In this document: in pieces, positions 30,783 to 49,520 of the stretch
Numbering within the stretch: position 1 is the stretch's first letter
Layout of the letters: the number at the start of each line of letters is the position of its first letter
Position numbers and translations under genes: made by a program
Notes under the pieces: model-generated
What the model was told of the DNA's origin: nothing
The model's database searches: none
The model's input: the letters and a program-made list of their open reading frames with translations, nothing else
DNA from: Alphaproteobacteria bacterium
GTDB lineage: Bacteria; Pseudomonadota; Alphaproteobacteria; UBA828
Length of the DNA stretch: 64,000 nt
Direction of reading: 5' to 3'
Assembly (NCBI GenBank): GCA_965214705.1
Contig: CBDCCI010000002.1
Location: 192,001-256,000, forward strand

Positions 30783-31362
30783 TCGTCAATTGTCGGTATT
30801 AGGGTAGTCGTACTCGTTGTTGCTGTGTGGTTGATTGGTTTTCTGGAAGGGTCGCCCAGGCGAGCGCGCGCTCGCCTGGGTAGTTCCGGCAGGCACGGTC
30901 GCGCTCAACATTGCGTCCACTGGCACGAATCAGGGATGACAGGCCGGGCGCGGCTCGGTGCGCGACGCGCTTACGGCACTTCTCGAGATGTGATCGTTAC
31001 AGGCTGGGAATCAGAGGATGTCCGCGCGTTCTGGCGCGCGGCGGTGCTACTCAATCCGCCGTTATCGACGCCTCTCATGCATGGTAATGAAGAGGCCCCG
31101 TCGGGAGGCCTCAAGGAGGCACTGTCCCGCGTTACAACGCGGAGGCAACCGGACGAACAGCCACGCGATACGGCGATAACGCCTGTCATTTCCTTCAGTT
31201 TTGGAGCGGCCCTTCATCTGCCCTGTTTCGCGAACCGACGGGCGGGTGCTCACGCGCGCTACTCTGTGATTCCGGCGCGTTACGCGGTGAAGCCGCCACG
31301 GTGCGCGGTGATGACGGCATTCGTGTGCCTCTTCGGCCCCGCGCGCTTGGGATGTGACGGCC

Positions 31363-32568
31363 GTGCCGCGACGTAGCACGCTGACGCTGTCGGGCCGGTC
31401 GGTGGACCGGCTCTCGGTCGAGGGCAGGGACCGGATCTTCTGGGACCGCGAGCTGGCGGGCTTCGGGGTCCGCGTCTACCCCTCGGGGCGGAAGGTCTAC
31501 GTCGTCCAGAGCCGGGCCCAAGGCGGGCCCAGGCGGGTGACGCTGGGTACCCACGGCGAGCTCACCACGACCCAAGCCAGGCTGCGCGCCGCCCAGGCCA
31601 TCGACCGCATCAAGCGGGGCGAGGAGCCCGCAGCACCGCCTGCCCAGGCCGGCGCCACCATCGCCGACCTCGCCGCCCGCTACCTGAGCGCCCATGTCGC
31701 GCAGAACTGCAACGCCCATACCGCCGGCATCTACCGGGGATCGCTGGAGAACCACATCCTGCCTGCCCTCGGCATGATGCCGCTCGCCATGGTCGAGACC
31801 GCCCACGTCGCGGCCTTGCACTACCGGCTGCGCTCTACGCCAAGGGCCGCCAACCGCGCGCTCTCGGTCCTCTCCAAGATGTTCTCCCTCGCGGCTGCCT
31901 GGGGCCTGGTGGCCGACGGCACCAACCCCTGCCGGGGCGTGCGCAAATACAAGGAGAAGAAGCGCGAGCGCTTCCTCACCCGCGACGAGTACCGCAGGTT
32001 GGGTCAGGCGCTGGTGAAGGCCGAGCTTGAGGCCGAGGCCGGCGTAGAAGGCGCGGTCTCGCCCTACGCCATCGCAGCGTTGCGCCTGCTCATGCTCACC
32101 GGCTGCCGCCTCAACGAGATCCTCACGCTCCGCTGGGACGATATCGACCGTACCGCCGGCGAGTTCCGGCTCCGCGACGGCAAGACAGGGGCCCGCATGG
32201 TCCCGCTCACGCCCACGGCAGAGACGGTGCTGGCCGGGATTCAACGTGTGCCGAACAACCCCTGGGTCATCGCCGGCAAGAAGCCCGGCACCCACCTCGC
32301 CACCATCACCGCAGACTGGTATCGCCTGCGTGCCCATGCGGGATTGGACGACGTGCGCATCCACGACCTCCGCCACTCCTACGCTAGCCGCGCGCTGGCG
32401 GCGGGCGAGAGCCTGAGCATGATCGGCAAGCTGCTGGGCCATGCCGACATCCAGACCACCGCCCGCTACGCCCATCTGGCACGCGAGACCAAGCGCCTGT
32501 CTGCCGCCCGCGTCGGCGGCAGCATCGGTGCCGAGGGCACTGGCGATAAGGACAGCCCCTCAACATGA
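31363..32568 (+). CDS. Tyrosine recombinase/integrase with arm-binding domain (type A, copy 1)
   Basis: WDRELAGFGVRV arm domain; TGCRLNEI, KTG, HDLRH, LLGH, TARY catalytic set; start 31354 or 31363. Confidence 0.92.
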   Translation: MPRRSTLTLSGRSVDRLSVEGRDRIFWDRELAGFGVRVYPSGRKVYVVQSRAQGGPRRVTLGTHGELTTTQARLRAAQAIDRIKRGEEPAAPPAQAGATIADLAARYLSAHVAQNCNAHTAGIYRGSLENHILPALGMMPLAMVETAHVAALHYRLRSTPRAANRALSVLSKMFSLAAAWGLVADGTNPCRGVRKYKEKKRERFLTRDEYRRLGQALVKAELEAEAGVEGAVSPYAIAALRLLMLTGCRLNEILTLRWDDIDRTAGEFRLRDGKTGARMVPLTPTAETVLAGIQRVPNNPWVIAGKKPGTHLATITADWYRLRAHAGLDDVRIHDLRHSYASRALAAGESLSMIGKLLGHADIQTTARYAHLARETKRLSAARVGGSIGAEGTGDKDSPST

Positions 32569-33446
32569 ACGTGGCAGTGCCCTCGGCACTTCCCGCGCAG
32601 GGAACGATCACGGAGCACACCGTGGCGGCGCTCTCTGCGGGCAGGGACACGGTGGTCTGGGACCGGGCGCTGACCGGCTTCGGCGTCCGGGTCTATCCCT
32701 CCGGCGCCAAGGTCTACGTGGTGCAGGCGCGGGGGCCCCAAGGCACGAAGCGCATCACCGTGGGCCGCCACGGGGTGATCGGGGCTCAGGAAGCCCGCCG
32801 GCGCGCGGCGCTCATCATCGCCCGCATCCGCGCGGGTGAGGCGCCCGTTCCCGAGGCACAGAAGACCGAGACCATCACCGTTGCCACCCTCGCCCAGCGC
32901 TACCTGCGCGAGCACGTGGCAGTGCATTGCAAGCCGACGACGGCGGCCCAGTACCGGCTTGCCATCGAGCGCTACATCGTGCCCGCCCTCGGCACCTGCC
33001 CGGTCTCATCCCTCGGGCGCGCGCAGGTGGCCGAGCTGCAGCATTCGCTTAGCGACCGCCCGGCCATGGCCAACCTGGTGATCGCGACCCTCTCGCGCAT
33101 GATCGACCAGGCCATGGCCTGGGGCGTGGCGGGGGAGATGAGCAACCCCTGTCGCTCCGCCCCCAAGTACCGGACGCGCCGGCGCGAGCGCTTCCTGACG
33201 GACGCGGAGTTCCAGCGGCTCGGCCGGGTGCTGGACGAGATGGAGGCGGAGGGGCGCCTCTCTCCCTACGCAGGGGCGGCGCTCCGCCTGCTCATGCTCA
33301 CCGGCTGCTGGCGCAACGAGATCCTGACGCTGCGCTGGGAGGACGTGCATCTGCAAACGCAGGAGCTGCATCTCAGCGACAGAAAGACAGGGACATTTGT
33401 CGACGGCTACGCTAATCATGCGTTCAGCTACGCTGGCGCGCGATAG
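32565..33446 (+). pseudogene. Truncated tyrosine recombinase (type B, copy 1)
   Basis: Arm and core-binding domains present; aligned catalytic Arg reads TGG (TGCWRNEI, 33309-33311); homology ends after DRKTG (~33390); no HxxR or Tyr. Confidence 0.85.
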
Positions 33447-33540
33447 AGCATTATATTTACTACTGTTTTCTTGATACCTCACCGTATTGGGCCCCTTGCA
33501 ACGCCGCAGAGAATGCGCTTGAATACGTCCCGGCTCGATG

Positions 33541-33554
33541 TCGCACATGTGCGA
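33541..33554. promoter_or_regulatory. 14-bp palindrome upstream of third integrase
   Basis: TCGCACATGTGCGA perfect palindrome ~20 bp before the ATG. Confidence 0.4.
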
Positions 33555-33575
33555 TTTGATCACGGAGATGGCGCC

Positions 33576-34757
33576 ATGCCCAAGCGAAGCACTCTGAAGA
33601 TCGCCAAGCGCACCGTCGATGCGCTCCGCGTCGAGCGCGGCGACGCAACCTTCTGGGACCGCGACCTCGCCGGCTTCGGCGTCCGCGTGCACGCGACCGG
33701 GCGCAAGGTCTACGTGGTGCAGTCCAGGGGGCCGGGGGGGCTGAAGCGCGCTCGGGTCGGCAGGCACGGCGACATCACCGTCGAAGAGGCGAGAACGCGC
33801 GCGGCGGCGGCGATCGACCGGATCAAGCGGGGCGAGGATCCCTTCCCGGCGCCTGCGGCGCCGGCACTTACCGTGGCCGGACTGGCGGAGCGCTATCTGG
33901 AGAAGCATGTGGCGATGCACTGCAAGCCGAAGACGGCGGCACTCTACCGGACGGTGCTGGACCTGCACATCCTGCCGGTGCTGGGCGGCAAGGCGCTCGG
34001 CGAGGTGGGGCGGGAGGACGCGGCGGAGCTGCATCACCGGCTGCGCGACACCCCCTACATGGCCAACACCGCCGCAGGGATCCTGTCGAAGATGTATCGG
34101 CTGGCGGAGAGCTGGGAGCTGGTGCCGCGCGGCTCCAACCCGTGCCGGTCGCTGCGCTACTACCGCGAGCATGCGCGCGAGCGGTTCCTGACGCCGGAGG
34201 AGTACCGCCGGCTGGGCGCGGCGCTGCGCGAGGCGGAATCGAAGGCAACGCCGTGGCCGCAGGCGGTGGCGGCAATCCGGCTGCTGATGCTGAGCGGCTG
34301 CCGCAAGAGCGAGATCCTGACGCTGAGGTGGGACGACGTGGACCGGGTGGCGAACGAGCTGCGGTTGAGGGACGCGAAGTCGGGGCCGCGCATGGTGCCG
34401 CTGACCCCGCCGCTGGTGAAGGTGCTCGACGGCATTCCCCGGATAGAGGGCAATCCGTGGGTCGTGCCGGGCCGCAAGCCGGAAACCCATCTGATCAACC
34501 TCGACTACTACTGGAAGCGCATCGCGGTGGAGGCCGGCATCGAGAACGTCCGCCTTCACGATGCCCGTCATTCCTATGCGAGCCGGGCGCTGGCGCTGGG
34601 GGAGAGCCTGAGCATGATCGGGCGGCTGCTAGGCCATTCCCGGGTGGCGACGACGGCGCGCTATGCGCATCTGGTGCGCGACGCGGAGAAGGCGGCGGCG
34701 GGCCGGGTGGGCGACAGCATCGGCGTTCACGTGGCGCCGGAGCGGAGCGCGGCATGA
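33576..34757 (+). CDS. Tyrosine recombinase/integrase (type A, copy 2)
   Basis: MPKRSTLK start with GGAG RBS; SGCRKSEI, HDARH, LLGH, TARY. Confidence 0.92.
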   Translation: MPKRSTLKIAKRTVDALRVERGDATFWDRDLAGFGVRVHATGRKVYVVQSRGPGGLKRARVGRHGDITVEEARTRAAAAIDRIKRGEDPFPAPAAPALTVAGLAERYLEKHVAMHCKPKTAALYRTVLDLHILPVLGGKALGEVGREDAAELHHRLRDTPYMANTAAGILSKMYRLAESWELVPRGSNPCRSLRYYREHARERFLTPEEYRRLGAALREAESKATPWPQAVAAIRLLMLSGCRKSEILTLRWDDVDRVANELRLRDAKSGPRMVPLTPPLVKVLDGIPRIEGNPWVVPGRKPETHLINLDYYWKRIAVEAGIENVRLHDARHSYASRALALGESLSMIGRLLGHSRVATTARYAHLVRDAEKAAAGRVGDSIGVHVAPERSAA

Positions 34758-35926
34758 AGGGGACGCGGCGGCGGACGATTTCCAACCGCATGGTGGCGGC
34801 GCTGGAGGTCGAGCGGGACACGGTGTTCTGGGACCGGGAGCTGAAGGGCTTCGGGGTGCGGGCCTATCCCGGCGGCGGCAAGGTCTACGTCGCTCAGGCG
34901 CGCGGTCCGAAGGGCCCGAGACGCGTCACGGTGGGGCGCCATGGTGTGGTCAACGCCGAGGAAGCGAAGCAACGCGCGGCGCTGATCATCGCGCGGGTCA
35001 AGGCGGGCGAGGACCCGGTGCCGGAGCCGCTGGCGGGGAAGCAGGCACAGGGGCCGACGGTTGGCGATCTCGCGGTGCGCTATCTCGAGGAGCACGTGGC
35101 GGTGCGCTGCAAGCCGAAGACCGCGCGCACGACGCGTAGCGTGGTGGAACGGCACATAGTGCCGAAGCTCGGCGGGCTGGCGCTGGGGGCGGTCGAGCCC
35201 CGTCACGTGATCGAGTTTCATCACGGTCTCAGCGACCGGCCCGCGATGGCGAACATGGCGGTGGCCACGCTGTCTCACATGTACCGGCTGGCCGAGGGCT
35301 GGGGCATGGTGGCGGATGGCATTAACCCGTGCGGGTCGGTGACGAGGTATCCGGCGAAGCGCCGGGAACGGTTCCTGACCGACGTGGAGTTCGAGAAACT
35401 GGGCCGGGTGCTGGACGAGGCGGAGGAGACAGGCGGCGCGTCGGCGGGTGCGGTAACCGCAATCCGGCTGCTGATGCTGACGGGGTGCCGGAAGAACGAG
35501 ATCCTGAGCCTGCGCTGGCGGGACGTGGACCTCGATGCGGGCGAGCTGGCGTTGGCCGACGCGAAGACGGGCTCGCGCGCGGTGCCTCTGCCGTCCTCGG
35601 CGGCGCGGCTGCTGGCTGCGCTGCCCCGCAAGCCCGGCAATCCCTGGGTCATTCCGGGACACAAGCCGGGCACGCACATTACCGACATCGACGATGCCTG
35701 GCAGACGCTGCGGGCGCGCGCCGGGCTCAAAGACGTGCGCCTTCATGACCTTCGCCACAGCTACGCTTCCAGGGCTCTCGCGCTCGGAGAGAGCCTGCCG
35801 ATGATCGGCAAGCTGCTGGGCCACAGCCAGGTGGAGACCACGGCGCGCTATGCGCACCTGGCGCGCGAGTCGGTGCACGAGGCGGCGGCCCGGCTCGCAG
35901 ACAGTCTCGCCGCTGACGTATTGTAG
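34754..35926 (+). CDS. Tyrosine recombinase/integrase (type B, copy 2)
   Basis: ATGA overlap; WDRELKGFGVR, TGCRKNEI, HDLRH, LLGHSQ, TARY. Confidence 0.92.
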   Translation: MKGTRRRTISNRMVAALEVERDTVFWDRELKGFGVRAYPGGGKVYVAQARGPKGPRRVTVGRHGVVNAEEAKQRAALIIARVKAGEDPVPEPLAGKQAQGPTVGDLAVRYLEEHVAVRCKPKTARTTRSVVERHIVPKLGGLALGAVEPRHVIEFHHGLSDRPAMANMAVATLSHMYRLAEGWGMVADGINPCGSVTRYPAKRRERFLTDVEFEKLGRVLDEAEETGGASAGAVTAIRLLMLTGCRKNEILSLRWRDVDLDAGELALADAKTGSRAVPLPSSAARLLAALPRKPGNPWVIPGHKPGTHITDIDDAWQTLRARAGLKDVRLHDLRHSYASRALALGESLPMIGKLLGHSQVETTARYAHLARESVHEAAARLADSLAADVL

Positions 35927-36110: not shown

Positions 36111-38426
36111 TCAAGAATCGGGGACAAGTGCATCGCCGGTCTGCAAGTACAGAATATCACATCGAACCTCCAACCGTTTGCGCTCATCAGCCCTAGGCAG
36201 AAATTCTTTCGCGATCTCTTCCGGAATAGGAATGAAAGTGCGATTTTTGGTAAGAATAGTTGCGGTAATCCTTGGCCCACCTCCGGATCCAGAACCTACC
36301 AGTCCTGGACACAGAATGTCGTAGTACAGTCCAAAATGTTTTGAATGGTGATGAAATACGAAAATAACCTTACGACCACCCCACACGATGTCTGTCGAAT
36401 GAGGCTGAAGAAAGAAGTGTCCCTTGTCGCGCTGAACACGATCACTTATTGAAAGAAAGCAGCGATATCCGTTAACCGGCGTTTCGCTCGTCAATATAAG
36501 AGCCCTTGTCTCCTCTTCCCGACGATCAATACCAGGTATTGCGCCGAGGGAGTCGGAAAGGTCTTCTTGTGACACTTCACTTCCGGGTTCACGAATAACG
36601 GACGAAAGTGGCGCCGTTCCGTCACGGCTTACCTCGACGAAAGATCGGTCTGTGTTGGCCAGCCGTTTCTTTGCATCCGCGACCGTCATCCTTCCTGCGT
36701 GCAACTCCTCGAAGATATCCTCAAGGTTCGCCTTATCGTCTAGTTCATACTCAAACCATTCCCGATTTGACCGCAGGTGACGCAAGAAGGCTTCCGAACC
36801 CTCCCGAGTACTGCTTGGCACCAGATTCGCGATTCTCGAGAAGAGCGTTGACCGGACGAAATCCTTTACGAAGGGACCGAACGCGTTGAAATCGTCGCGA
36901 TAGAGAGAAAGCAGGGGAGCAACACTAGTTGAATCCGGGTCCAGATAAATCACAACGGGCAAGCTGGAATCTTTAACGAGCACTGGCAACCCGCCTGAGA
37001 TTGCGCCAAAACGCACGTCCACTTCAAGAAAGTAGTCGTCTTCCAGGATCCTTGCCATGCGAGTCGCCAAAGCCGAATGAGCGAAACTGAGTCCCCCAAT
37101 TTCGAACTCCTTAGTCACGCGAGGTCTTGTATCGACCTCCTGGATACCCTGACTCGTGAGGTAGCCCAACTCACAGTCCCGACGTGGCGATCTTCGGGAA
37201 ACCACGACGAGTGGTTCGTCCTCGCTTGCATACGTCTGAATGACCGATTCATCGCGGCCACTGTAGTATCGTAGTCCACCACGCTCCACCACCGTCGCCA
37301 ACGGTTCGGACTTACTGTTTGGCCGAGGTATGACCTCAAGTGGACCGCAGAGGGCGAACTGTCCTGTCGCAAGGATCCAACGCAGGAATCCGTCGTTGGC
37401 GAAGGACACCGAATGCTCGGCGGCGATTGGAGAAACTACCTGGTCGAGCGCTGAAACAACTTGTTGAAGCAGTTGATTTGAGGGGGCATCCAATGCTTCA
37501 CGACCTGCGGTAGGTTTCAGAAACGGCAGGTCGACTACTCCACCCCAATGGTATCCTGATTGCATCGCAACGGTCGCAAGACCGAATCCAGACCGTAACG
37601 TTCGGATAACGTTACGGTCCTGAAGCAGGATAATCGAACCTGGCCTTCCCAGTCCTGTTTGCGATAGGACGTGTTCCATCACAACGCGAAGTTCGCCAGA
37701 CGCCATGCCCAGCACCTCAAGATCGCCAGAGACGATTCCGGCAAGGGATGCACCTGGGAGACGTTTTGACCAGGAGTGTCGTTCGGAAGGGAGCACGGTT
37801 CTGGGACCGGCGCCGCTCAGCATTTCGCCGTTAAACCAGACTGGTACGTCTACGAACTCGACGAACCCATGGAGGAAAGCGCGAGCGTCGTGCACAGGCA
37901 TTCTGCTCTCGGGAGCCAAGCGAGCCTGAACAGTGGTACCTGGCTGTCCCACTGGCTCCATCGAAACAAGGGAGATGCTCTTGTTGTCCGTGGACAACTC
38001 CGCCTTCCGCACGGACGAAAACGTGCGTTCTTGGGCAAGCGCCGATTCACTTTCCACGGACAGTTCGTGGGCGACGCCAAAATTCGCCATGGCCCCGATG
38101 CCGAATGTTCCCACCACGCCAGCCGCTCGCGCAGTTTCGGTGTTCTTTCCACTCCTTCCTGCATACCAGAAGTTCGTTTCGATCTCTTCGGCAGTCATGC
38201 CGATCCCGTTATCGGCTACGATGACGCTTTCGTCGTCTACAGTTACCCGAATTGCCGGCTTGAAGTTTTGATTCGGAATCGCCTGTCTCATTCGAACGGC
38301 GTCAAATGCGTTCTGCGTGTTCTCGCGAAGAAGCGCCAAAGGTGACTGGTAGATTTGGTCGGCAAGGAGTTCTAGCATCCGGGAGAGCTCGAGTTTGAAG
38401 GCGATTTTCTTCTCAGTTGAGCTCAT
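36111..38426 (-). CDS. Hsp90/GHKL-family ATPase with long uncharacterised C-terminus
   Basis: IYQSPLALLRENTQNAFDA (N box), DNGIGMT (G1), GTFGIG (G2); 771 aa; lower GC than host. Confidence 0.85.
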   Translation of the reverse strand: MSSTEKKIAFKLELSRMLELLADQIYQSPLALLRENTQNAFDAVRMRQAIPNQNFKPAIRVTVDDESVIVADNGIGMTAEEIETNFWYAGRSGKNTETARAAGVVGTFGIGAMANFGVAHELSVESESALAQERTFSSVRKAELSTDNKSISLVSMEPVGQPGTTVQARLAPESRMPVHDARAFLHGFVEFVDVPVWFNGEMLSGAGPRTVLPSERHSWSKRLPGASLAGIVSGDLEVLGMASGELRVVMEHVLSQTGLGRPGSIILLQDRNVIRTLRSGFGLATVAMQSGYHWGGVVDLPFLKPTAGREALDAPSNQLLQQVVSALDQVVSPIAAEHSVSFANDGFLRWILATGQFALCGPLEVIPRPNSKSEPLATVVERGGLRYYSGRDESVIQTYASEDEPLVVVSRRSPRRDCELGYLTSQGIQEVDTRPRVTKEFEIGGLSFAHSALATRMARILEDDYFLEVDVRFGAISGGLPVLVKDSSLPVVIYLDPDSTSVAPLLSLYRDDFNAFGPFVKDFVRSTLFSRIANLVPSSTREGSEAFLRHLRSNREWFEYELDDKANLEDIFEELHAGRMTVADAKKRLANTDRSFVEVSRDGTAPLSSVIREPGSEVSQEDLSDSLGAIPGIDRREEETRALILTSETPVNGYRCFLSISDRVQRDKGHFFLQPHSTDIVWGGRKVIFVFHHHSKHFGLYYDILCPGLVGSGSGGGPRITATILTKNRTFIPIPEEIAKEFLPRADERKRLEVRCDILYLQTGDALVPDS

Positions 38427-39847
38427 TGCGTCATCCCTCTAGCGGCGATTGTTGCTTTCAGTTCTTCGAAGAGACCGAAAGGTACCAGAGGTTTCGAAGC
38501 CCGAAGGCAGATCATGGCCTCGTCAAATCGACGAGCGTCAAGGAGCAGGGAGACGATCTCTACAACCTCACCCACATTCTCGGGTGGGTCGAGTAGCGCG
38601 ATCAGCCTATTCGTCTGACCAAGCCCTCTTAGGGCCTCTATTTCGACCTGTCTCTTCTCCATCGTTCGACAGGATGGCACATCTGCAATGAGCGCGAGAG
38701 CTTTCTCATACTGCTTGTTGCCGATGGCTGTCATTGCGTCGTCGAGCCGTTGGTTGGCCGTAGGGCCGGCTGCCTGACGCCGTGCTGGCGGCAAACTCAG
38801 GCTAATGGACGTTCTACCACCGAAATCGTCTCGATGAGCGCCGGTAAATACTCCCGCTGGCGACATGCCCCTCACATGAATCGTAATCGATCCTCTGTCT
38901 GGATCTACCACTACAACATTGAATTGGCGACGTTCTCCCATCGGCAACTCGCCATCGCCGACCGCAAGGGATCCAGCGCCCACCACGACCATTGAGGTCA
39001 GATTCGGTAGACGTAGCTCAAACGGAGCCGCTCCGGGATAATGCTGATGCCCATGCAGACCGAGACCGAAGCCAAAATCGACCAGCCTGTGCACTATGCG
39101 CTGATCCATGTAATCGTGCGCGCGCGGTCCGCCCGTTATGTTGTGGTGCCACACCGCGAGGCCTAGCCCGGTTTTCGATCCCGCAAGGAGTTTTTGCGAC
39201 AGAGCCAGAGACGTTGGATCGATATCTCCGACATGGCAAAAGCAGTCATTACCGTACCACGAGGAAAATCCGGCCACGGAAAAGTCTAAGTCTGGATATT
39301 CGATAAAGAAGAGATCCTCAGTTCCATGTTCTAGTGGGTTTGGCGCCATTCCTTCGTAGAAATTCTTCCGAAATTTTCGGAAATGCTCAAACCGGGACGC
39401 ATACAAGTGCTGGTCGAAGATCTCGTAGGCTTTCCGGTCTCTCCAATTCCAGCGAAAACCTGAAGCGGCCTCAATGGCCTTTGTCGCAATGCCGTCCGGG
39501 CAAGTTCCAATCGATTTCATCGCCGCAAGCGAGCGACACCAGTGAACGTCGTGGTTTCCAGGGACGATGACTATTCGCGATCGGTCGGAATCAACAAACT
39601 CCTTTCCCAGATTATCGAGAAATTCAGCAGCTTCACGGTACTGGGCCTCAACCAAGACATCCGGATTGAGTGAGTCCAATCCTGCACCCTGAATCAAGTC
39701 ACCGCTTACCACGATTAGCTCGGGTCTCGGTATTCCTTCCGAGGTCCATCGGGCGGCATCGCTGATGATCGCTGAGAGAAGCTCGGTATTACTTAGATGG
39801 GGTCCTGATGTTCGATGCAAGTCGGAGATATGGAGCAACGTGGGCAC
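38423..39847 (-). CDS. Calcineurin-like metallophosphoesterase with C-terminal helical (TPR-like) region
   Basis: HISDLH, VSGDL, PGNHD, WHH, LHGHQH; GTG start with GAGG RBS; ATGA overlap with the ATPase. Confidence 0.87.
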   Translation of the reverse strand: MPTLLHISDLHRTSGPHLSNTELLSAIISDAARWTSEGIPRPELIVVSGDLIQGAGLDSLNPDVLVEAQYREAAEFLDNLGKEFVDSDRSRIVIVPGNHDVHWCRSLAAMKSIGTCPDGIATKAIEAASGFRWNWRDRKAYEIFDQHLYASRFEHFRKFRKNFYEGMAPNPLEHGTEDLFFIEYPDLDFSVAGFSSWYGNDCFCHVGDIDPTSLALSQKLLAGSKTGLGLAVWHHNITGGPRAHDYMDQRIVHRLVDFGFGLGLHGHQHYPGAAPFELRLPNLTSMVVVGAGSLAVGDGELPMGERRQFNVVVVDPDRGSITIHVRGMSPAGVFTGAHRDDFGGRTSISLSLPPARRQAAGPTANQRLDDAMTAIGNKQYEKALALIADVPSCRTMEKRQVEIEALRGLGQTNRLIALLDPPENVGEVVEIVSLLLDARRFDEAMICLRASKPLVPFGLFEELKATIAARGMTQ

Positions 39848-40045
39848 GAATTCATCCTCGACCGCAGAGTTATCGTTCAGCCTGAGCTGGATGGACAGCA
39901 CGACTGGTGGGTTCGGAAAACGATCCCGAGCGTTCGGATACCTCGCTTCCGTCGATAGCGGCCAGCGCAATCTCCTGCATGTCGGGCGAGTACCATGCGA
40001 TGCCGGTCGACTGCCTGTCGCAACCAATAAAGGGTCGCGAAACCC

Positions 40046-40990
40046 TCATTTCTCCGTTCTGGGACCGAGGAAGCGCTCGCCATCGTAGTGAATCATGTGG
40101 TCGGGCGAATCGCATAGCCACACTTCAGTTTCCCAAGCGATGTTCTTGATGTGCTTGCGAAACTCCCTCAAATCCGGAAACGCGCTGACATAGACGGTAC
40201 CCGCCGCGCAGTCGGCGAGCATGGCTTCCAGGTCGACCACGCGTGTTGGCGAGACCGGGCCGTGAGACGTCACCGCCTCGACCAGAAACAGCCACTCGCG
40301 TTCGCCGTCGTAGAGCACGACGTCGGGCAGCTTGTCGTGGTCGGTGATCGCGATGCCGAGCTCGTTCAGTCGATCCCTGTCGACGAACAGGTTCTTCCTG
40401 GCTGTATCACCGAGATACAGCAGGTGAGCACCGGGAGCGAACCGCGGCGCGAACTGCTCGACGATGGCTTTTTGAACCTCATTGTGCCGGCCCGGTGAGA
40501 GCCGAAGCTCCCGCCCGTCGGGCAACTTGACCGGTATGAGGGTGCGGTCCCGATCACGTGCGTAGCGTTCTACGAGCGTGCCCTGCTCCAGGCGGAACCG
40601 TTCCACGGCGGCGTCCCATTCATCGCGGCCATAGCACTGAACGACGTCTAGGACCGCTTCGCTGACAGCGTAATGGGCCTTCGGGCTGTTTGTCGCGAGG
40701 CTGGGTTCGAATGGATTGTAGTCGGCAATGCCGCCTTGGACGAACTGGTGGAGCACCTGTCGGCGAAAGGTCTCGCGCGTGTTCGGCGCATAATCTGTGC
40801 CGTAGTGCTGCTCGAGGTAGTCCATGATGCCCTTGGTCACCGTGCATCGGCGTCGCTCGGCGGCGGACCAGGGGGTATCGGGCGTCAGTCCGCAGAGCGC
40901 GAGCAGCGTCATCCCGGCCATTGGATTGTGCTGCGCGGGCGGCATGCCCAAGGCTTCGAGAATGCGCTGTGCCTCCTGGACGTCAGCCAA
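40046..40990 (-). CDS. Type II restriction endonuclease, BsuBI/PstI family
   Basis: YAPNTRETFRRQVLHQF HTH; LSPGRHN, KLPDVVLY..LVEAVTSHGP, IAWETEVW. Confidence 0.92.
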   Translation of the reverse strand: MADVQEAQRILEALGMPPAQHNPMAGMTLLALCGLTPDTPWSAAERRRCTVTKGIMDYLEQHYGTDYAPNTRETFRRQVLHQFVQGGIADYNPFEPSLATNSPKAHYAVSEAVLDVVQCYGRDEWDAAVERFRLEQGTLVERYARDRDRTLIPVKLPDGRELRLSPGRHNEVQKAIVEQFAPRFAPGAHLLYLGDTARKNLFVDRDRLNELGIAITDHDKLPDVVLYDGEREWLFLVEAVTSHGPVSPTRVVDLEAMLADCAAGTVYVSAFPDLREFRKHIKNIAWETEVWLCDSPDHMIHYDGERFLGPRTEK

Positions 40991-42653
40991 CAGCCGCCTC
41001 CTTCAATGCGGGCGGAGCGGCTATTCTCGCGACAGGTTCGTCCAATCCCGCGGCGGGATCGTCAAGACGCTTCACCACCCGCCCGAGTGCGATGATCGTC
41101 TCGCGGGCGGGAAGCGGCATGGCACGCAACTCGGTCGCGCTCACCTGAGTGTTGCCGTTGACCGACCGGAACCAGGTGTCGAGGAGGCGGCTGTTGTACA
41201 GCCCCGCCAAGCCCCAGGCCTCGTCTTCGGAGAGCGTACCGCCTGGACGGTGAACGTAGTTGAGGTGGTTTTCCAGCCCGATCTCCGGAAGCGCGAGGCC
41301 TGCGGCAATATAGGGAGCTGCAGTCAGTCGGCGCGGCTCCTCCTTGGCGCTAAAGCGGCGGATGAGAACGTAGTTCCTGTTCGGCACGAGAAGGGCCCCG
41401 GCACCGGCGCGCGCGATGTACTCGGGCTTGTGTCGGTCCAGGGGCCAAGCGACCCGCATCGCGCGGACGTGGTTCATCCAAAGGAGCGGCACATGGGTTG
41501 CCGGAACCTCACCTTGCATGGCGATGAATTCCGTTGCCCGGAACGGCACCACCGGTCCGGTCGAGATGTTCAGCCCTAGGGCGGCGAGGCTGCTGGGCCA
41601 CGAATCCACCAGTGCCAGCGCCTCATGGTCCTCGTCGCAAACCGGCATCCGGAGCACCTTGTCGGCGGTGGCGAGATTGAGCACCGCGTCAACCATGGTC
41701 TCGCGAGTGCTCGGCCTGCCGATGTCGTCGATCCCGAGGCTTGACGAAATGGACAAGGGTGTAGCGGCCCCGTTCTCGTGCCAGCGATTCTGGCGGACCC
41801 CTGAGACGATGACGTTCTCCTGCAGTACCGCGTCTCGACGGAACGCGTCGCGCCGGGACTCGAACACATGCACTCTCGTCGGCCGGATCATGTCGAAGAA
41901 CGCGCCCCGGAACCGGCGGAAGTACGAACCGGAGGCGAAGCTGCGCGGCGTGATGAACACGAAACTTCCCCGTCGCCGCAGCAGCGCGGCGCCTACCGCC
42001 ATGAACAGGGCGTATATGTTGGGCTGGCCGTGAACCACATCGGCTGCGGCGACGGCGCGAGGATCGCCCTTGCCGATCTTGAAGTAAGGCGGGTTGGCGA
42101 TGACCGCATCGAATCCCCCCGCCGCGGTCTCGGAGGCGAAGAGTCCGCACGGGCGCATCGCATCGGCGTTTGCCATGATGAAGTCGGTGGCTTCGATTCG
42201 AACCACAACCCGCACCCGAAAGCTTGCTTGGCACCAATTCGCGAGATAGTCGAGTGCCGCCCGCAGCGCGGGGATCAGACCACTGTCGACCTCATAGGCG
42301 ATCAATTCAACCGTATCGGGTTTCGGCTTGCGCGATGCAATCGCCTCGACTGCCGCGCAGCCGAGGATGCCGGCACCCGCCGCGGGATCGAGGATCCGAA
42401 CCTTCCGCCGTTTTGCCGTGATCCGCCCGGCCATCGTGATCCGCCCGGCCATGAAGTCTGCGACGGGGATCGGCGTAAGAAAGAAACCGTACTCCTTGCG
42501 TTGCCGCACGGATATCCGCGCGGCGCACCATTCGCCAACACGGTCGGCGTAGGCGGTGGGCCGCTCTCCCTCATGGGGGAGCGGCAAGCGAGAGCACCCA
42601 AGTGCGGGCTTAGTCGCAGGTCGTTTTTCCGAATGTTCTATGAGATCCGGCAT
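40983..42653 (-). CDS. N6-adenine DNA methyltransferase (M.BsuBI/Eco57I-like, gamma class)
   Basis: ILDPAAGAG motif I precedes IANPPY motif IV; PNIYALF, STGPVVPFR, ENHLN, NGNTQV. Confidence 0.9.
   Translation of the reverse strand: MPDLIEHSEKRPATKPALGCSRLPLPHEGERPTAYADRVGEWCAARISVRQRKEYGFFLTPIPVADFMAGRITMAGRITAKRRKVRILDPAAGAGILGCAAVEAIASRKPKPDTVELIAYEVDSGLIPALRAALDYLANWCQASFRVRVVVRIEATDFIMANADAMRPCGLFASETAAGGFDAVIANPPYFKIGKGDPRAVAAADVVHGQPNIYALFMAVGAALLRRRGSFVFITPRSFASGSYFRRFRGAFFDMIRPTRVHVFESRRDAFRRDAVLQENVIVSGVRQNRWHENGAATPLSISSSLGIDDIGRPSTRETMVDAVLNLATADKVLRMPVCDEDHEALALVDSWPSSLAALGLNISTGPVVPFRATEFIAMQGEVPATHVPLLWMNHVRAMRVAWPLDRHKPEYIARAGAGALLVPNRNYVLIRRFSAKEEPRRLTAAPYIAAGLALPEIGLENHLNYVHRPGGTLSEDEAWGLAGLYNSRLLDTWFRSVNGNTQVSATELRAMPLPARETIIALGRVVKRLDDPAAGLDEPVARIAAPPALKEAAVG
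42417..42452. repeat. 18-bp tandem duplication inside the methyltransferase (MAGRIT x2)
   Basis: CGTGATCCGCCCGGCCAT twice, exact, in frame. Confidence 0.85.
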
Positions 42654-42655
42654 TC

Positions 42656-42868
42656 TCAGCCCGAGTCCTCCTTTCTGCTTGCTTGGTCTGCAAGTCTCAG
42701 AGGCAACTCTTTCTGCGCACGATGCTCCTGCACGAAGCGTTGGATTGCCTGGCGAACGACCCACGACAGGGACACATCGCTCTTTAGTGCCATGGCGTTG
42801 AGCGCGGCGTAGTCTGCTTCGTCGAGGCTTACCGTCAGCCTTGTGGTCTTCTTCCGACGTTCAGCCAT
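42656..42868 (-). CDS. Ribbon-helix-helix (CopG-like) regulator heading the R-M operon
   Basis: TTRLTVSL..DVSLSWVVRQAI; stops 2 bp before the MTase ATG. Confidence 0.8.
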   Translation of the reverse strand: MAERRKKTTRLTVSLDEADYAALNAMALKSDVSLSWVVRQAIQRFVQEHRAQKELPLRLADQASRKEDSG

Positions 42869-43270: not shown

Positions 43271-44044
43271 TCACTCCCTGGTCATCGTCCAGATGACCTC
43301 GCCGACGATCTGGACATTCCCGGCGAGGCGGGTACGGGCTTCGTAGTCGGGGTTGGCGCAGTTCAGCCGGAGCCTCGGCGGATCCGTCCCGCCGACCGGC
43401 TCGACGCGCCAGACCGCGAAACCGCCGGGTTCCCGGAGCACGAAGAGCCCGCCGGCGCTGGGATCCCGCTTCGCCGTGTCCACGACCAGGCGGTCGCCCT
43501 CGCGCAGTAGGGGTTCCATCGCGTTGCCGCGCACCCCGACGATGCGCAGGCTCGCGGGGTCGGCGCCGACGGCTCTACGGATCATGGCTTCGGGCAGCCG
43601 CCAGCGCGCCTTCTCCCGCTCAAGCTCCTCGCCGCGCGCGTCCGGCGCGGCGGAAGGCTCGATCTCGATCTCGGGCACGGCGGCGAGGCCGGAAGTGGCG
43701 GAAGGCCGTTTGCGCTGCGCGCGTTTCCGAGGCTTGCGCGGCGGGATCTCGGCGTGGCGCAGCAGGCTGGGGTCGCAGTCGAGCAGCGCGGCGAGAGCGG
43801 CGCTGTCCCGGTATGAGAGCGCGCGGGGGATGCCGCGGGAGAGGTACTGCTGGAGCCAGGCCCTGTTCCTGCCGATGGCGAGGGAGGCCGCGGCGAGCGA
43901 GACGCCGCGCTCACGGAGCCGTTGCCGAAGATTCTCCGGCGCCGGATCGCGCTCCGTCGTGTGCTTCTTCGGCCGTGCCGCGGCCACATCCGCCGGGTCC
44001 CGGCCGAACCCGCTGCCGGCGCCGGTCGCTGCGCCTGTCAGCAT
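43271..44044 (-). CDS. HTH-S24 (CI/LexA-like) repressor paralogue, catalytically degenerate
   Basis: HTH SLAAASLAIGRNRAWLQQYL; GNAMEP instead of GDSMEP, AVWRV instead of VVKRV, no Ala-Gly site. Confidence 0.82.
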   Translation of the reverse strand: MLTGAATGAGSGFGRDPADVAAARPKKHTTERDPAPENLRQRLRERGVSLAAASLAIGRNRAWLQQYLSRGIPRALSYRDSAALAALLDCDPSLLRHAEIPPRKPRKRAQRKRPSATSGLAAVPEIEIEPSAAPDARGEELEREKARWRLPEAMIRRAVGADPASLRIVGVRGNAMEPLLREGDRLVVDTAKRDPSAGGLFVLREPGGFAVWRVEPVGGTDPPRLRLNCANPDYEARTRLAGNVQIVGEVIWTMTRE

Positions 44045-44724
44045 TTCCTCACGGTCCAGACGACCTTGCCGACGATGTGGGCTTCCTCGGCGAGGCAGCT
44101 GTAGGGCTCGTAGTCGGGGTTGGCGGAGTGGAGGCGGAGCCGCGGCGGCTCGGCATGGGGCAGCACCTCGACGCGCTTGACCACCAGCCCCGAGCCGTCC
44201 CAGAGCACCGCCATCTCCCCGGTATCGGGGCTGCGCCGGGCGATGTCGACCAGCAGCCGGTCGCCGTCGGAGATCAGCGGCTCCATGGAATCGCCGCGCG
44301 CGCGCAGCACGCGCAGGCTGCCGGGATCGGCGTCGCCCTCGTGGCGGATCATGCCCTCGGGCAGGTACCAGCGCGCCTTCTCGGCGGCGAACTCCTCGTT
44401 GAGCGCGCCCGGACCGGCGGCGGCCTCGACCGCCACCTCGGGGATGGCGACGAGCGGCGCGCCGGGAAGGGGCGCGGTGCGCCGGCGGCGCTTCTGCGGC
44501 CTGCGCCGGGGCGGCTCGGAAAGGCGCAGCTCAGACGCCTTGCAGCCGAGCAGCTTCGCGAGGCTCTCGGCGTCGGCATAGCCGAGCGCCTTGGGCGTGC
44601 CGCGCTCGAGGAACTGGTGCAGGTAGCTGGGGCTGCGGCCGATGGCGGCGGAGGCCTCCTTCATGGTGAGGCCGCGCTGCCATAGGAGATCCCTGATTTT
44701 TTGTCGTAGCGGGTCGCGTTCCAT
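44038..44724 (-). CDS. HTH-S24 (CI/LexA-like) repressor, autocleavable
   Basis: HTH, AAAGPG cleavage site, GDSMEP (Ser), VVKRV (Lys). Confidence 0.9.
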   Translation of the reverse strand: MERDPLRQKIRDLLWQRGLTMKEASAAIGRSPSYLHQFLERGTPKALGYADAESLAKLLGCKASELRLSEPPRRRPQKRRRRTAPLPGAPLVAIPEVAVEAAAGPGALNEEFAAEKARWYLPEGMIRHEGDADPGSLRVLRARGDSMEPLISDGDRLLVDIARRSPDTGEMAVLWDGSGLVVKRVEVLPHAEPPRLRLHSANPDYEPYSCLAEEAHIVGKVVWTVRKC

Positions 44725-44815
44725 GGTCGGTGTTCGTATCTGTTGCGTAGAACAATAGTGTATTCAAGATCGAAATATATTGTCAAGCCGGAATGTTCCA
44801 CCTACGTTCCGGCCC
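44725..44815. promoter_or_regulatory. Divergent promoter/operator region between repressor and tra operon
   Basis: AT-rich spacer between divergent regulators; imperfect inverted repeat GCCGGAATGT-N7-ACGTTCCGGC at 44787-44813. Confidence 0.6.
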
Positions 44816-45870: not shown

Positions 45871-46164
45871 GTGAACGACACCGCGCGCCATGCGATCCCG
45901 CGCCGTCTCGACGACCCGGAGCGCTGGCTGTTCTGGACCTTCGACGAGGCGGCGGCACTGCTGGGACCGGCGGTGCTCGGGCTCGCGGCGAACCAGTTCG
46001 TCGCGGGACTGGTGGCCGGCATCGCCGGCTGGCTGCTGCTGCGCCGCGTCAAGCGCGGCGGCGGGGCCAACATCGCGCTCTACGCGCTCTACTGGTTCCT
46101 GCCCGAGTTCGTGCTGCGGCTCCGTGGCACCCCGCCAAGCCATGTCAGGCGGTACTTCGGATGA
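45871..46164 (+). CDS. traL: F-type pilus assembly protein TraL
   Basis: IPRRLDDPERWLFWT.DE, LYWFLP, TPPS. Confidence 0.9.
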   Translation: MNDTARHAIPRRLDDPERWLFWTFDEAAALLGPAVLGLAANQFVAGLVAGIAGWLLLRRVKRGGGANIALYALYWFLPEFVLRLRGTPPSHVRRYFG

Positions 46165-46712
46165 GGCGCGAGGCGATGGACGCGGAGCGCCGCCGGGCGC
46201 GGGACACGCGGGCGGTTCTCGCCGGGCTGCTGGCGCTCGCGGTTCTCTCCAACCTGGTGCTGGCGCACGGGCTGACCAGCCGCGAACGGGTGACCGTGCT
46301 GGTTCCCGCCGTCTCGGGCCCCGCCTGGGAGGTGGGGGAGAGCTGGGCGGGGCGGCGCTACCTGGAGGATGCGGCGCGCACCGCAGCGGTGACGCTGCTC
46401 ACGCTCACGCCCGAAAACGCGGCCCATGTGCGCGAGGCGGTCGCGCGCCTCGCCCATGCCGAGGCCCGGGGCGCTATCGGCGCCTGGGTGGCGTCGGAAG
46501 CCGAGCGGATGGCCCGGCGCGACCTCTCGACCGCGTTCTACCCGAGGAGCATCGAGAGCGACGGGCGCGAACTCAGCGCCGAGATCGCGGGCGAGCTGGT
46601 GACCTGGATCGGGCGCGAGGAGGCTTCGCGGCAGAAGCGGCGCTACCGCCTCGCCTTCCGCATCGACGCGGGCCGGCTCGCGCTGCTGCGTTTCGAGCAG
46701 ATGGAGGACTGA
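46161..46712 (+). CDS. traE: F-type TraE
   Basis: N-terminal TM, TVLVP, YLE, LTPEN, STAFYP; gene order. Confidence 0.85.
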   Translation: MRREAMDAERRRARDTRAVLAGLLALAVLSNLVLAHGLTSRERVTVLVPAVSGPAWEVGESWAGRRYLEDAARTAAVTLLTLTPENAAHVREAVARLAHAEARGAIGAWVASEAERMARRDLSTAFYPRSIESDGRELSAEIAGELVTWIGREEASRQKRRYRLAFRIDAGRLALLRFEQMED

Positions 46713-46714
46713 GC

Positions 46715-47593
46715 ATGACTTTGCACCTTCGTGTAGGCGCGGCTGCCGCGCTGTTTTGCGCACTCATTATATATGCCGCGCTGCCGACCGCCGCGTCCGC
46801 GACGCAGGTCACCAGCACAAGTGTCTCCGGCACAAGTGTCCTGGAGGCGGCGGACCACGCCGAGCTCCCGGCGCAGGTCTCGGCGTCCGGGGTGGTCCGG
46901 ATTGCACTCCTGGGCGACCGCATCGCGCGGGCGGTGAAGAGCGCGGGCCGCTTCGAGATCGAGCACGACACCGCGACCGGCGACCTCTACCTTCGGCCGC
47001 CGGACGCTGCCGGCGGCGGAGCGGACCGCGCCGCGAAAGCCGAGGCGGGACCTGAGGCGGCACCTGCGGCGGGATCTGCGGTCCTGTTCGTGGGCACCGA
47101 GAAGGGCTTTACCTACCGGCTGATCCTGACGCCTGTGGCGGGCGGCCCGGCGCAGGTGCTGATCCGCAACCCGGCGGCGGGGGCGGCCGCAGTCCGCGAA
47201 CCCGCCGCCGGCAATCGGCGCATCGGCGCGCTGGTGCGCCTGATCCGCGCGGTGGCGCGGCGCGAGCCTCTTGCCGGCTATGCGATCCATGCCGGGGGCG
47301 CGTTCCCCGGCACGCGTGTCTCCGGATTGACGGTCATCGGGACCTGGCGGGGCACCGAGGCGTTCCCCCGTCCGCGCTTCTCGGCGCTCGTGTTTGAGGC
47401 CGGCCCTTCGGCGTCCGAAGGCGCGGAGAGTGCCGCGGGCCTCGTCGGGACCATTGGTGGATTGCCGGGGATCGGCCGCGTCGCCGCTCTCTGGCTGGCG
47501 GCGCCCGGCACCGGCCCCTCGGGCGGCAGGCTCGCGGTGGCGGTGCACGAGGACACTCGTGCCGGAGACACGCGTGCCGGAGACTCCCGATGA
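46715..47593 (+). CDS. traK: F-type secretin-like TraK
   Basis: Signal peptide, GDLYLRP, TEKGFTY; lies between traE and traB. Confidence 0.8.
   Translation: MTLHLRVGAAAALFCALIIYAALPTAASATQVTSTSVSGTSVLEAADHAELPAQVSASGVVRIALLGDRIARAVKSAGRFEIEHDTATGDLYLRPPDAAGGGADRAAKAEAGPEAAPAAGSAVLFVGTEKGFTYRLILTPVAGGPAQVLIRNPAAGAAAVREPAAGNRRIGALVRLIRAVARREPLAGYAIHAGGAFPGTRVSGLTVIGTWRGTEAFPRPRFSALVFEAGPSASEGAESAAGLVGTIGGLPGIGRVAALWLAAPGTGPSGGRLAVAVHEDTRAGDTRAGDSR
46812..46841 (-). repeat. 15-bp tra repeat, 2 units (traK, after signal peptide)
   Basis: CCAGCACAAGTGTCT CCGGCACAAGTGTCC; encodes TSTSVSGTSV. Confidence 0.8.
47307..47321 (-). repeat. 15-bp tra repeat, 1 unit (traK)
   Basis: CCGGCACGCGTGTCT followed by CCGG; encodes GTRVSG. 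Confidence 0.8.
47551..47580 (+). repeat. 15-bp tra repeat, 2 units (traK C-terminus)
   Basis: GGACACTCGTGCCGG AGACACGCGTGCCGG then AGAC; encodes DTRAGDTRAG. Confidence 0.85.
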
Positions 47594-48840: not shown

Positions 48841-49520
48841 ACGAACGTAACGGATGGGCCGTGAGAGCGGCCGCCACGGCAATGGCCGCGCTGGCGCTGG
48901 CGGGCTGCTCGGCGACCCATGTGGGCGACGACTGGCAGTGCCCGCTCGCGCAGGGAGAAGTGTGCTCGTCCGTCGCAGCCGCCGATCCGGCAGTGCCGAA
49001 GACACGGGTGCCGGGGACACGCGTGCCGGAGACGCTCGTGCCGGGGACGCTCGTGCCAAAGGCTGGGGCTGGGGGCACCCAAACCCCCGCGGCCAAGGCC
49101 GCGCTCTACCGGCCTCGTGGAGAGCCCGCCGCGGCTTCGGGACGGGCGGCGCAGCGGGATTGCGAATCGGACTGTGGCCCGCTCGCCTGGCTGGCAGGGC
49201 TGCTCGAAGGTTTCGCCGGCGAAGATACGGAAGGCGAAGAGACAGCCGTGACGGGCGAAGGTGCGGCCGGCGAGGAACACTCCGGTCCCACCGATGCGGG
49301 CCGCGAACCGGTCGCTCCCGCCGCCGCTCTGCAGGCTGCGCCCGGCGACGCCTCGATCTCGTCCCCTCCGGCCGATGAAGCCGCCGCCGGAGAGAATTTC
49401 CGCGAGCCCGAGGAGATCGCCCGCATCTGGATCGCGCCCTTCGTGGATGCCGAGGGCATCTACCACGAGGGGGTCTGGGTGCGGGCGGTGATCGCGCCGG
49501 CCGAATGGAGGCTTCCGTGA
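48837..49520 (+). CDS. traV: F-type lipoprotein TraV
   Basis: Lipobox LAGC, WQC..C pair, RIWIAPFVDAEG. Confidence 0.88.
   Translation: MNERNGWAVRAAATAMAALALAGCSATHVGDDWQCPLAQGEVCSSVAAADPAVPKTRVPGTRVPETLVPGTLVPKAGAGGTQTPAAKAALYRPRGEPAAASGRAAQRDCESDCGPLAWLAGLLEGFAGEDTEGEETAVTGEGAAGEEHSGPTDAGREPVAPAAALQAAPGDASISSPPADEAAAGENFREPEEIARIWIAPFVDAEGIYHEGVWVRAVIAPAEWRLP
49000..49059 (+). repeat. 15-bp tra repeat, 4 units (traV)
   Basis: AGACACGGGTGCCGG GGACACGCGTGCCGG AGACGCTCGTGCCGG GGACGCTCGTGCCAA; encodes TRVPG TRVPE TLVPG TLVPK. Confidence 0.88.

Follow-up and report, generated by a model that had tools for sequence, protein, structure and literature searches.

The locus reported here encodes a calcineurin-like metallophosphoesterase (MPE) whose domain is related to those of known anti-phage systems. 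The systems DS-8 and DS-9 are reported to protect against phage and to need the catalytic residues of their MPE (PMC13092281), and the Calcineurin-CE domain of PUA-Cal-HAD is reported to turn dADP into dAMP, with a collapse of the pools of deoxynucleoside triphosphates (dNTPs; PMC12871103). A preprint (10.64898/2026.09.30.754977) credits Nicastro, Burroughs, Iyer and Aravind (2023; NAR, gkad879) with prokaryotic Hsp90-like defense proteins joined to HD or calcineurin-like phosphoesterase effectors. Here, we analyze two adjacent genes, encoding an MPE and an Hsp90-like ATPase of the GHKL superfamily, in a stretch of 64,000 nt from an Alphaproteobacteria bacterium (UBA828; GenBank assembly GCA_965214705.1, contig CBDCCI010000002.1, positions 192,001 to 256,000), which is called the window throughout. 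At a probability of roughly 60%, we favor the reading that the two genes form a self-contained anti-phage or anti-mobile-element module, in which the ATPase would be the switch and the MPE the effector. The features of the pair are as follows.

36111..38426, minus strand: Hsp90-like GHKL ATPase gene, 771 aa, predicted ATP-driven switch or sensor
38423..39847, minus strand: MPE gene, 474 aa, GTG start, predicted effector
38423..38426, minus strand: ATGA stop/start overlap with translational coupling, reading ...ACG CAA TGA / ATG AGC...
39848..40045, minus strand: spacer of 198 nt separating the MPE gene from a restriction endonuclease gene; it includes a ribosome-binding site (GAGGA) at 7 nt from the GTG

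The open frame of the MPE extends over 38423-40027 (minus strand), and the GTG at 39847 is its true start, giving 474 aa, because GAGGA lies 7 nt upstream, relatives align from this position and an identical 474-aa protein is on record. The original prediction, made from the sequence of the window alone, had the end coordinate 39847 right; the start codon there is GTG, not ATG. GC content is 0.52-0.56 across 36-40 kb against 0.69-0.72 on both sides, and at third codon positions it is 0.55 in the ATPase gene and 0.57 in the MPE gene against approximately 0.85-0.93 in the flanking genes. A scan of the 198-nt spacer gave no sigma-70-like promoter, a result that is uninformative in a host of 70% GC.

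The window MPE belongs to the same domain clade as that of DS-9, also known as PUA-Cal-HAD or Metis (PMC13092281; PMC12871103; 10.1101/2025.11.05.686725). Within the family defined below, the NCBIfam model DS9_1_antiphage (NF053862) matches 60 of 60 MPEs (best E 8.7e-16) and DS8_antiphage (NF053861) matches 50 of 60, all of these matches falling below the equivalog cut-offs; the sole other NCBIfam matches are to models of the PolD small subunit, in at most 12 of the 60. In that system the effector is reported to need its metal ligands and to act on deoxynucleotides, and it comes with a fused PUA-like sensor that binds m6-dAMP and with a HAD phosphatase partner, whereas the partner in the window is an Hsp90-like ATPase. 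A Pfam scan detected no PUA, HAD or NACHT domain in either window protein. Similar to the window pair, DS-8 (a metallophosphatase-NACHT protein; PMC13092281) and the MPE-STAND and MPE-GTPase fusions have a homologous MPE before an NTPase switch, but their switch belongs to the MPE polypeptide itself and is of the P-loop type (STAND or GTPase) with repeat sensors, instead of a GHKL/Hsp90-type ATPase encoded by a second gene.

The predicted Hsp90–Calcineurin-CE/HD modules resemble the window pair in that they combine an Hsp90-like ATPase with a calcineurin-like, predicted nucleotide-directed effector, and the ATPase is seen there as an analogue of STAND or GTPase switches (summarized in 10.64898/2026.09.30.754977). 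Going by this summary, the window pair differs in that its effector is a separate, translationally coupled gene. The window locus is probably a real defense pair of a kind already predicted in print and not a categorically new system. The word "undescribed" in the original prediction was too strong in view of the modules that the preprint credits to the 2023 paper, although neither protein corresponds to a system model in PADLOC v2.0 (PADLOC-DB v2.0.0) or NCBIfam 20.0. Literature searches, outside which lay the 2023 Nicastro lists and Data S1 of the Tiamat preprint, returned no description of a defense pair of an Hsp90-like protein and a phosphatase.

GHKL ATPases also occur in Tiamat (TmtA), MzaB, paraMORC and BbrUII/HgiDII-type systems, and the matches of the window ATPase to these are weak. 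Partial PADLOC matches were obtained to REase_II (PDLC03485, 22 bits), PDC-S60 (22 bits), TmtA and MzaB; among 54 ATPases of the family the N domain matches REase_II in 31, TmtA in 18 and MzaB in 3, in each case through the ATPase domain only. The NCBIfam model for BbrUII/HgiDII scores 32.7 bits against a cut-off of 550. Tiamat is described as a single protein of 1300 aa with a PD-(D/E)xK nuclease (10.64898/2026.09.30.754977), whereas the window pair has no nuclease domain.

An obligate pair of genes

Relatives of the pair were compared in 21 genome loci (L001-L021), in which the ATPase is 62-80% identical to that of the window and two of which end at a contig edge, and in 80 metagenome loci, in which it is 34-52% identical; 70 of the latter carry at least 500 nt of DNA upstream of the ATPase gene and 10 carry less. 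In all 21 genome loci the ATPase gene is preceded by an MPE homolog of the same orientation, which is directly adjacent in 20 of them; in the metagenome, 70 of the 70 loci with at least 500 nt of upstream DNA have the MPE homolog directly upstream. The 4-nt stop/start overlap is found in 70 of 91 loci, a count that is slightly biased toward this overlap, as the start codon nearest the stop was chosen. The distance matrices of the ATPase and the MPE, calculated for 56 loci, are strongly correlated (Mantel r = 0.945; none of 999 permutations as high), and this co-divergence indicates joint inheritance of the two genes, with no exchange of partners. The MPE and the ATPase are an obligate module. 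The original prediction of a single two-gene module is borne out here: the genes are paired in every testable locus, translationally coupled and co-diverging.

The one genome locus in which the two genes are not adjacent (L003:5143-11820) has a Mutator-family transposase gene between MPE and ATPase, which lie 1.5 kb apart, and its MPE is cut to 446 aa. A second transposase ORF (open reading frame) of the same length (441 aa) and with an identical Pfam score is located just downstream of the ATPase, so that the ATPase gene is bracketed as in a composite transposon. Two further loci are decayed. In L019:6565-10275 the ATPase match has broken up into three pieces and, of the MPE, no more than the C-terminal 65 residues can be recognized; in L015:6577-8004 the MPE is divided between two ORFs (159 and 246 aa). 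Proteins in which MPE and Hsp90 are fused were not present among the best 150 representatives (at most 813 aa) or, as weaker evidence, among 78 longer MPE homologs.

Domain architecture of the two proteins

For the MPE, 59 of 72 extracted ORFs were aligned. The 13 dropped were truncated by an insertion sequence (L003), broken (L015, L041), affected by start-picking artifacts (L009, L020, L055) or over-long starts (L077, L084), or apparent near-duplicates as judged by eye from their termini (L014, L017, L027, L067, L080). Pfam Metallophos matches the window MPE with 47 bits. The motif residues D9 and H11, G49 and D50, G97, N98, H99 and D100, H234 and H235, and G266, H267 and H269 are invariant in 60 of 60 sequences, the first three motifs reading SDLHR, SGDLIQG and GNHD. 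In the AF2 model (pLDDT 91.4) the catalytic domain runs from residue 1 to approximately 357 and is followed by seven helices (364-473). Within the MPE, variation is greatest in this tail (mean distance 0.768, compared with 0.576 for the catalytic domain). The tail had been described as helical and TPR-like in the original prediction; the helices are confirmed by the model, whereas no TPR family of Pfam matches at E <= 0.1, the tail fold being barely probed by the structure searches.

The best structural match of the MPE is YydB of B. subtilis, taken from an integrative YydD-YydB model (9a6c), with a Foldseek E of 3.8e-16 over 541 columns and a VIA Z of 27.3 (297 residues, rmsd 3.5); the next entry scores five Z units lower. 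YydB has a similar length (481 aa) and is modeled with a partner protein, but its identity is only 15%. Its partner YydD is, we assume, a DUF2326-type ATPase and not a GHKL protein; a search for DUF2326 gave no match in the genome to which the window belongs and a match in the B. subtilis control genome. Next come the cyclic-nucleotide phosphodiesterase Rv0805 (Z 22.3) and SMPDL3A (Z 21.8), and further Lmo2642, GpdQ and purple acid phosphatases. In searches of the PDB by sequence, phmmer returned nothing at E <= 10 and the MPE profile matched the PolD small subunit only (E 0.0024). Many of the 78 longer proteins with a homologous MPE domain carry NACHT/STAND, Ras-like GTPase-WD40, HEAT, TPR, TIR or HAD domains, families that are given here without their order, and a HATPase family was found in none of the 78, which is weak evidence. 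From these compositions it appears that the homologous MPE domain would occupy an effector position alongside a switch.

The ATPase was analyzed with a family alignment of 54 members, which served for conservation and for profile searches. On the window protein itself Pfam detects HATPase_c_3 only. The profile matches, over residues 2-221, the N domains of TRAP1, HtpG, Grp94 and Hsp82 in the PDB (E 1e-23 to 1e-18), and the AF2 model (mean pLDDT 86.0) matches full-length Hsp90s in Foldseek (E 7.5e-21). In VIA, Hsp90s align with the model at Z 22-24 with 469-495 residues, from residue 1 to approximately 545-555 of the model and up to approximately 700 of the Hsp90 chain; they are also at the top among 48,161 representative chains (Z 21-22). 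The Hsp90 middle-to-C fragment 8oxu_A aligns with residues 360-544 (Z 7.7). By comparison, ParE, topoisomerase II, MutL and MORC reach Z 13-18.5 over the first 330-370 residues only, and MutL, MLH1, MORC2/3 and SMCHD1 reach Z 13.6-16.4 over residues ~7-369, as judged by structure alignment. As the Hsp90 alignment is both longer and better than those to MutL, MORC and topoisomerases, the model points to an Hsp90 paralog with N, middle and C domains, of predicted dimer type, rather than to a MORC- or MutL-type protein.

The predicted layout comprises an N domain (~1-210), a middle domain (~211-440), a C domain (~441-545), a low-confidence linker (~546-640) and a beta-rich domain (~641-762). The order of the first three is the same as in the Hsp90 family (HtpG, TRAP1, Grp94, Hsp82), from which the window ATPase differs by a C-terminal extension of 225 residues and by its obligate enzyme partner. 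E35 and N39 (RENTQN), D72, G74 and G76, and G103, G106, G109 and G111 are invariant in 54 of 54 members, and on the Hsp90 pattern these supply the catalytic Glu, the Mg-binding Asn, the adenine-binding Asp and the glycine boxes. Intact GHKL boxes and the five MPE motifs, noted from the window sequence alone in the original prediction, are thus family-wide. R309 (PTAGRE), which lies within the aligned middle domain, is likewise invariant in the 54-member alignment and is a candidate equivalent of the middle-domain catalytic arginine, R380 in yeast. With 90.8 bits for the NCBIfam model PRK14083 and 59.8 bits for HtpG, the ATPase stays far below the respective cut-offs of 455 and 371 bits, and Pfam HSP90 matches 0 of 54 members; on these profile scores the protein is Hsp90-like and not an HtpG ortholog.

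Approximately 550 aa of the ATPase had initially seemed to match nothing. This no longer applies up to residue ~545, where the Hsp90 middle and C domains account for most of the sequence, but it does for residues ~546-771. No Pfam family recurs in this extension among the 54 members even at E <= 1, the best score in a feature search of residues 545-771 (0.77) is at noise level, and no fold match was obtained for the C-terminal domain in a wide structural search that was filled by the N and middle domains and hence barely probes 546-771. The beta-rich domain is nevertheless predicted with confidence (pLDDT ~90), contains the invariant residues W682, Y702 and P733 and shows the strongest conservation of the whole protein: its mean pairwise distance is 0.444, compared with 0.463 for the ATPase domain. 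Variation peaks at residues 211-270, where the middle domain begins. There are approximately 2,000 ATPase homologs, and about 50 of the best 150 representatives are full-length (~750-810 aa) and 27-65% identical end to end; one further homolog (P0194) has ~280 extra N-terminal residues, and only HATPase domains were found in it.

A second, weak GHKL match is present in the host genome (G000:C1:3939931-3940230), with 37% identity over residues 5-95, in an open frame of 654 aa. This is probably the ordinary HtpG of the host, whose assembly is flagged with 8.72% contamination.

The structural data bear directly on a different reading of the pair, a restriction-like system directed at DNA, in which the GHKL protein would clamp DNA in the manner of MORC, MutL or topoisomerase-type proteins and the MPE would cut nucleic acid like Mre11/SbcD. 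We consider this improbable. It would fit the position of the pair behind or beside restriction-modification (R-M) genes in the window and in many other loci, the weak matches of the ATPase N domain to GHKL restriction enzymes (REase_II at 22 bits, a model matched by 31 of 54 members; BbrUII/HgiDII at 32.7 bits) and the presence of Mre11 among the fold matches of the MPE (Z 18.9). Against it, Hsp90s align at Z 22-24 over ~535 residues of the ATPase, compared with Z 13-18.5 over ~330-370 for MutL, MORC and topoisomerases; nucleotide and small-molecule phosphodiesterases as well as DS-9 and DS-8 all rank above Mre11 for the MPE; and Pfam scans recognized no DNA-binding domain in the proteins of the pair.

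Neighborhoods, mobility and spread

In the window, the pair is located directly downstream of an R-M pair on the same strand. The surrounding features are as follows.

31315-35926, plus strand: four consecutive tyrosine-integrase-type ORFs, edge of the element
40046..40990, minus strand: BsuBI/PstI-type type II restriction endonuclease (Pfam PF06616 206 bits, PF17728 140 bits; PADLOC REase_II 374 bits), neighbor outside the pair
40983..42764, minus strand: Eco57I/N6-type DNA methyltransferase, cognate to the endonuclease (Pfam Eco57I 54.5 bits; PADLOC MTase_II 335 bits), neighbor
43271-44044 and 44038-44763, minus strand: two adjacent repressor genes with helix-turn-helix and S24-peptidase domains (LexA/CI-like), between the R-M pair and the transfer genes
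45890-55830: TraK/TrbI/TraC/TraU-type transfer genes

As integrase-type ORFs lie on one side and Tra/Trb transfer genes beyond the other neighbors, the pair is cargo of an integrative conjugative element (ICE). Coordinates, GC content and the Pfam and PADLOC matches all agree with the initial description of two intact genes of lower GC, overlapping by ATGA, behind an R-M pair in ICE cargo. The endonuclease gene has a GC content of 0.62-0.66, unlike that of the MPE and ATPase genes, and the enzyme is absent from 20 of the 21 related genome loci. In the remaining one, from an Arenicellales metagenome-assembled genome (MAG; L021:152-6365), the pair lies behind fragments of both genes of the same BsuBI/PstI-type R-M pair, and it also adjoins a short pAgo (Piwi) and SIR2 pair and an AbiEi/AbiEii pair. 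Within the ICE, the integrase-type ORF at 32550-33446 has arm-binding and SAM-like N-terminal domains only, without a catalytic domain. No tRNA gene was found at the integrase junction, the sole tRNA of the window being at 83-156.

R-M or other defense genes are located within 3 ORFs of the pair in 13 of the 21 genome loci, and include GmrSD, type ISP/IIG, McrBC-like, XhoI and SfiI pairs, type III-like genes, pAgo-SIR2, AbiE and an MPE-nSTAND protein. The latter, a fusion of 1050 aa with a DS-8-like layout (L008:12332-15484, minus strand), lies 2 kb downstream of a pair that has a 1640-aa type ISP R-M enzyme directly upstream. For the metagenome, 150 of 169 neighboring ORFs from 58 loci were scanned, most of which have no Pfam match at 1e-8. 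Clear defense genes (TIR, Shedu, nSTAND3, McrBC, Mrr, SIR2, type I R, methylases) occur within 2 ORFs in 12 of these 58 loci and approximately 7 more are arguable. Transposases or integrases flank the pair in many loci (L001, L003, L006, L012, L020), and its GC content is below that of the flanks in 49 of 58 loci. The setting among defense genes and mobile elements, as the original prediction had it, was thus recovered in genome loci, metagenome loci, the ICE and megaplasmids, and on this genomic context a role of the pair in defense is likely.

The closest relatives (65-80% identity) are found in MAGs labeled Bryobacterales, Dehalococcoidia, Gemmatimonadota, Acidimicrobiia, Caldilineaceae, Rhodobacteraceae, Arenicellales and Candidatus Poriferisocius. 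Copies this similar in at least 5 phyla indicate recent transfer across phyla, and their spread, with one copy in Candidatus Poriferisocius, suggests rapid exchange within one kind of community.

Mobility of this extent could also be expected of a module that serves its element, by addiction or exclusion, with the MPE as a growth-arresting toxin restrained by the ATPase. The location on an ICE here and on conjugative megaplasmids elsewhere, the flanking transposases and integrases, the low GC content and the highly similar copies in MAGs of several phyla would all be in line with such maintenance or competition. Yet defense systems are equally mobile, the neighbors are mainly anti-phage genes, homologous MPE domains work in validated anti-phage systems (PMC13092281) and the ATPase was found in none of 50,697 phage records. 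We therefore give this explanation, too, only a small chance.

Proposed mechanism and remaining alternatives

In the reading that we favor, the Hsp90-like ATPase would act as an NTP-driven switch, the role that STAND NTPases and GTPases have in related systems. A dimer of the ATPase would hold the MPE inactive. The variable helical tail of the MPE may dock it on the ATPase. Upon engagement of a client or signal derived from infection, ATP-dependent closure of the clamp would release or activate the MPE. The binuclear MPE would then hydrolyze free nucleotides, either (d)NTP/(d)NDP or a cyclic or signaling nucleotide, and the loss of nucleotides would starve phage replication or abort the infection. 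The individual parts of this proposal do not all carry the same weight. By analogy with the related effectors, the chances that the MPE acts on nucleotides are about even, and an even bet is also what the analogy with other switches allows for a switch or sensor role of the Hsp90-like protein.

The contact between the two proteins was addressed by complex prediction, as the original prediction had proposed. The full ATPase with the MPE tail obtained a score of 0.49 (runs 0.49, 0.54 and 0.00), and the best of 3 controls obtained 0.00; the runs agree in at least 0% of contacts, with a partner pLDDT of at least 70. In the calibration of this score, 116 of 157 solved complexes attained the mark, as did 2 of 215 mismatched pairs; at 0.60 or under, it was attained by only 18 of the 157 complexes but by both of the passing mismatches. 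The modeling thus weakly suggests that the MPE tail might dock on the ATPase.

Several observations weigh against the proposed defense module, the weak docking score being one of them. No recognizable defense neighbor is present in 7 of the 21 genome loci (L002, L003, L006, L013, L015, L016, L018), and L010 has a PIN gene only; the copies in L002, L015, L016 and L018 lie amid housekeeping genes, and most of the 58 metagenome loci lack a recognizable defense neighbor as well. The neighbor counts are qualitative and cover loci of the family only. The family is rare, with 0 ATPase matches at E <= 1e-30 in 400 other genomes of the phylum of the window. With respect to the effector, the MPE fold is common to cyclic-nucleotide and lipid phosphodiesterases and, at lower Z, to Mre11, and the window MPE reaches 42 bits with the DS-9A model, whose cut-off is 420, and 18 bits with that of DS-8, whose cut-off is 790. 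A DS-9A score so far below the cut-off makes the MPE a relative of the domain clade and not of the system. Finally, the printed Hsp90-like systems are reported to have a hypervariable sensor domain, whereas the window ATPase is conserved end to end and most of all in its C-terminal domain.

The original prediction also drew a parallel to eukaryotic Hsp90 and PP5, which would make the pair a chaperone and a protein phosphatase acting on protein clients. The N, middle and C architecture of the ATPase, a helical MPE tail that could be a TPR-like adaptor and the weak tail–ATPase prediction (0.49 against 0.00) speak for such a parallel. Signatures of the PPP family are GDxHG, GDxVDRG and GNHE. The MPE motifs SDLHR, GDLIQG and GNHD differ from these signatures, and no PPP phosphatase is among the 50 matches listed in either fold search. 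Moreover, as mentioned above, TPR families are lacking at E <= 0.1, and the ATPase ends in 21 residues that show little conservation (39% gaps) and have no acidic terminus of the MEEVD type. Together with the DS-9/DS-8 model matches and the phosphodiesterase folds, these data do not sustain the analogy, and we regard this explanation as very improbable. The same small chance is left to an ordinary accessory function in metabolism or stress, e.g. a specialized chaperone with a nucleotide-salvage phosphodiesterase, for which the copies amid housekeeping genes could be adduced but against which stand the patchy distribution (0 of 400 genomes of the same phylum), the foreign composition, the location in mobile elements and defense islands and the decayed copies L015 and L019.

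A more specific version of the favored module would have the Hsp90 paralog serve as the immune receptor itself: its client-clamping cycle would recognize a phage-made protein or the infected state and then license the tail-docked, nucleotide-degrading MPE. We consider this a doubtful extension. Were it correct, recognition might involve residues 211-270 or the conserved beta domain at the C-terminus, a chaperone-fold sensor would be demonstrated for the first time in prokaryotic immunity, and the 65-80% identical copies across phyla would mark a recently and widely exchanged defense pair.

If the pair is a defense system, it would offer an experimental handle on a class so far known only as a prediction from comparative genomics, that of immune modules in which the switch is a chaperone-type ATPase (Hsp90/Hsp70) and not a STAND or GTPase domain. 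It would also add another case of attack on the nucleotide pool by Calcineurin-CE-type enzymes and raise the question what an Hsp90 fold senses during infection. The pair is compact (two genes, 3.7 kb), conserved and present on conjugative megaplasmids of a culturable genus, and is therefore directly testable.

Among plasmids, the ATPase was identified on three conjugative megaplasmids of P. aeruginosa and on one Rhizobium plasmid. On the latter, the annotation upstream of the ATPase is limited to a 459-nt "hypothetical protein" (L106:7537-7995), and the MPE may be truncated there or missing from an incomplete PLSDB gene table. On the megaplasmid pPUV-9, the two genes carry no annotation beyond "metallophosphoesterase" and "ATP-binding protein", and an ABC-three-component system is located nearby.

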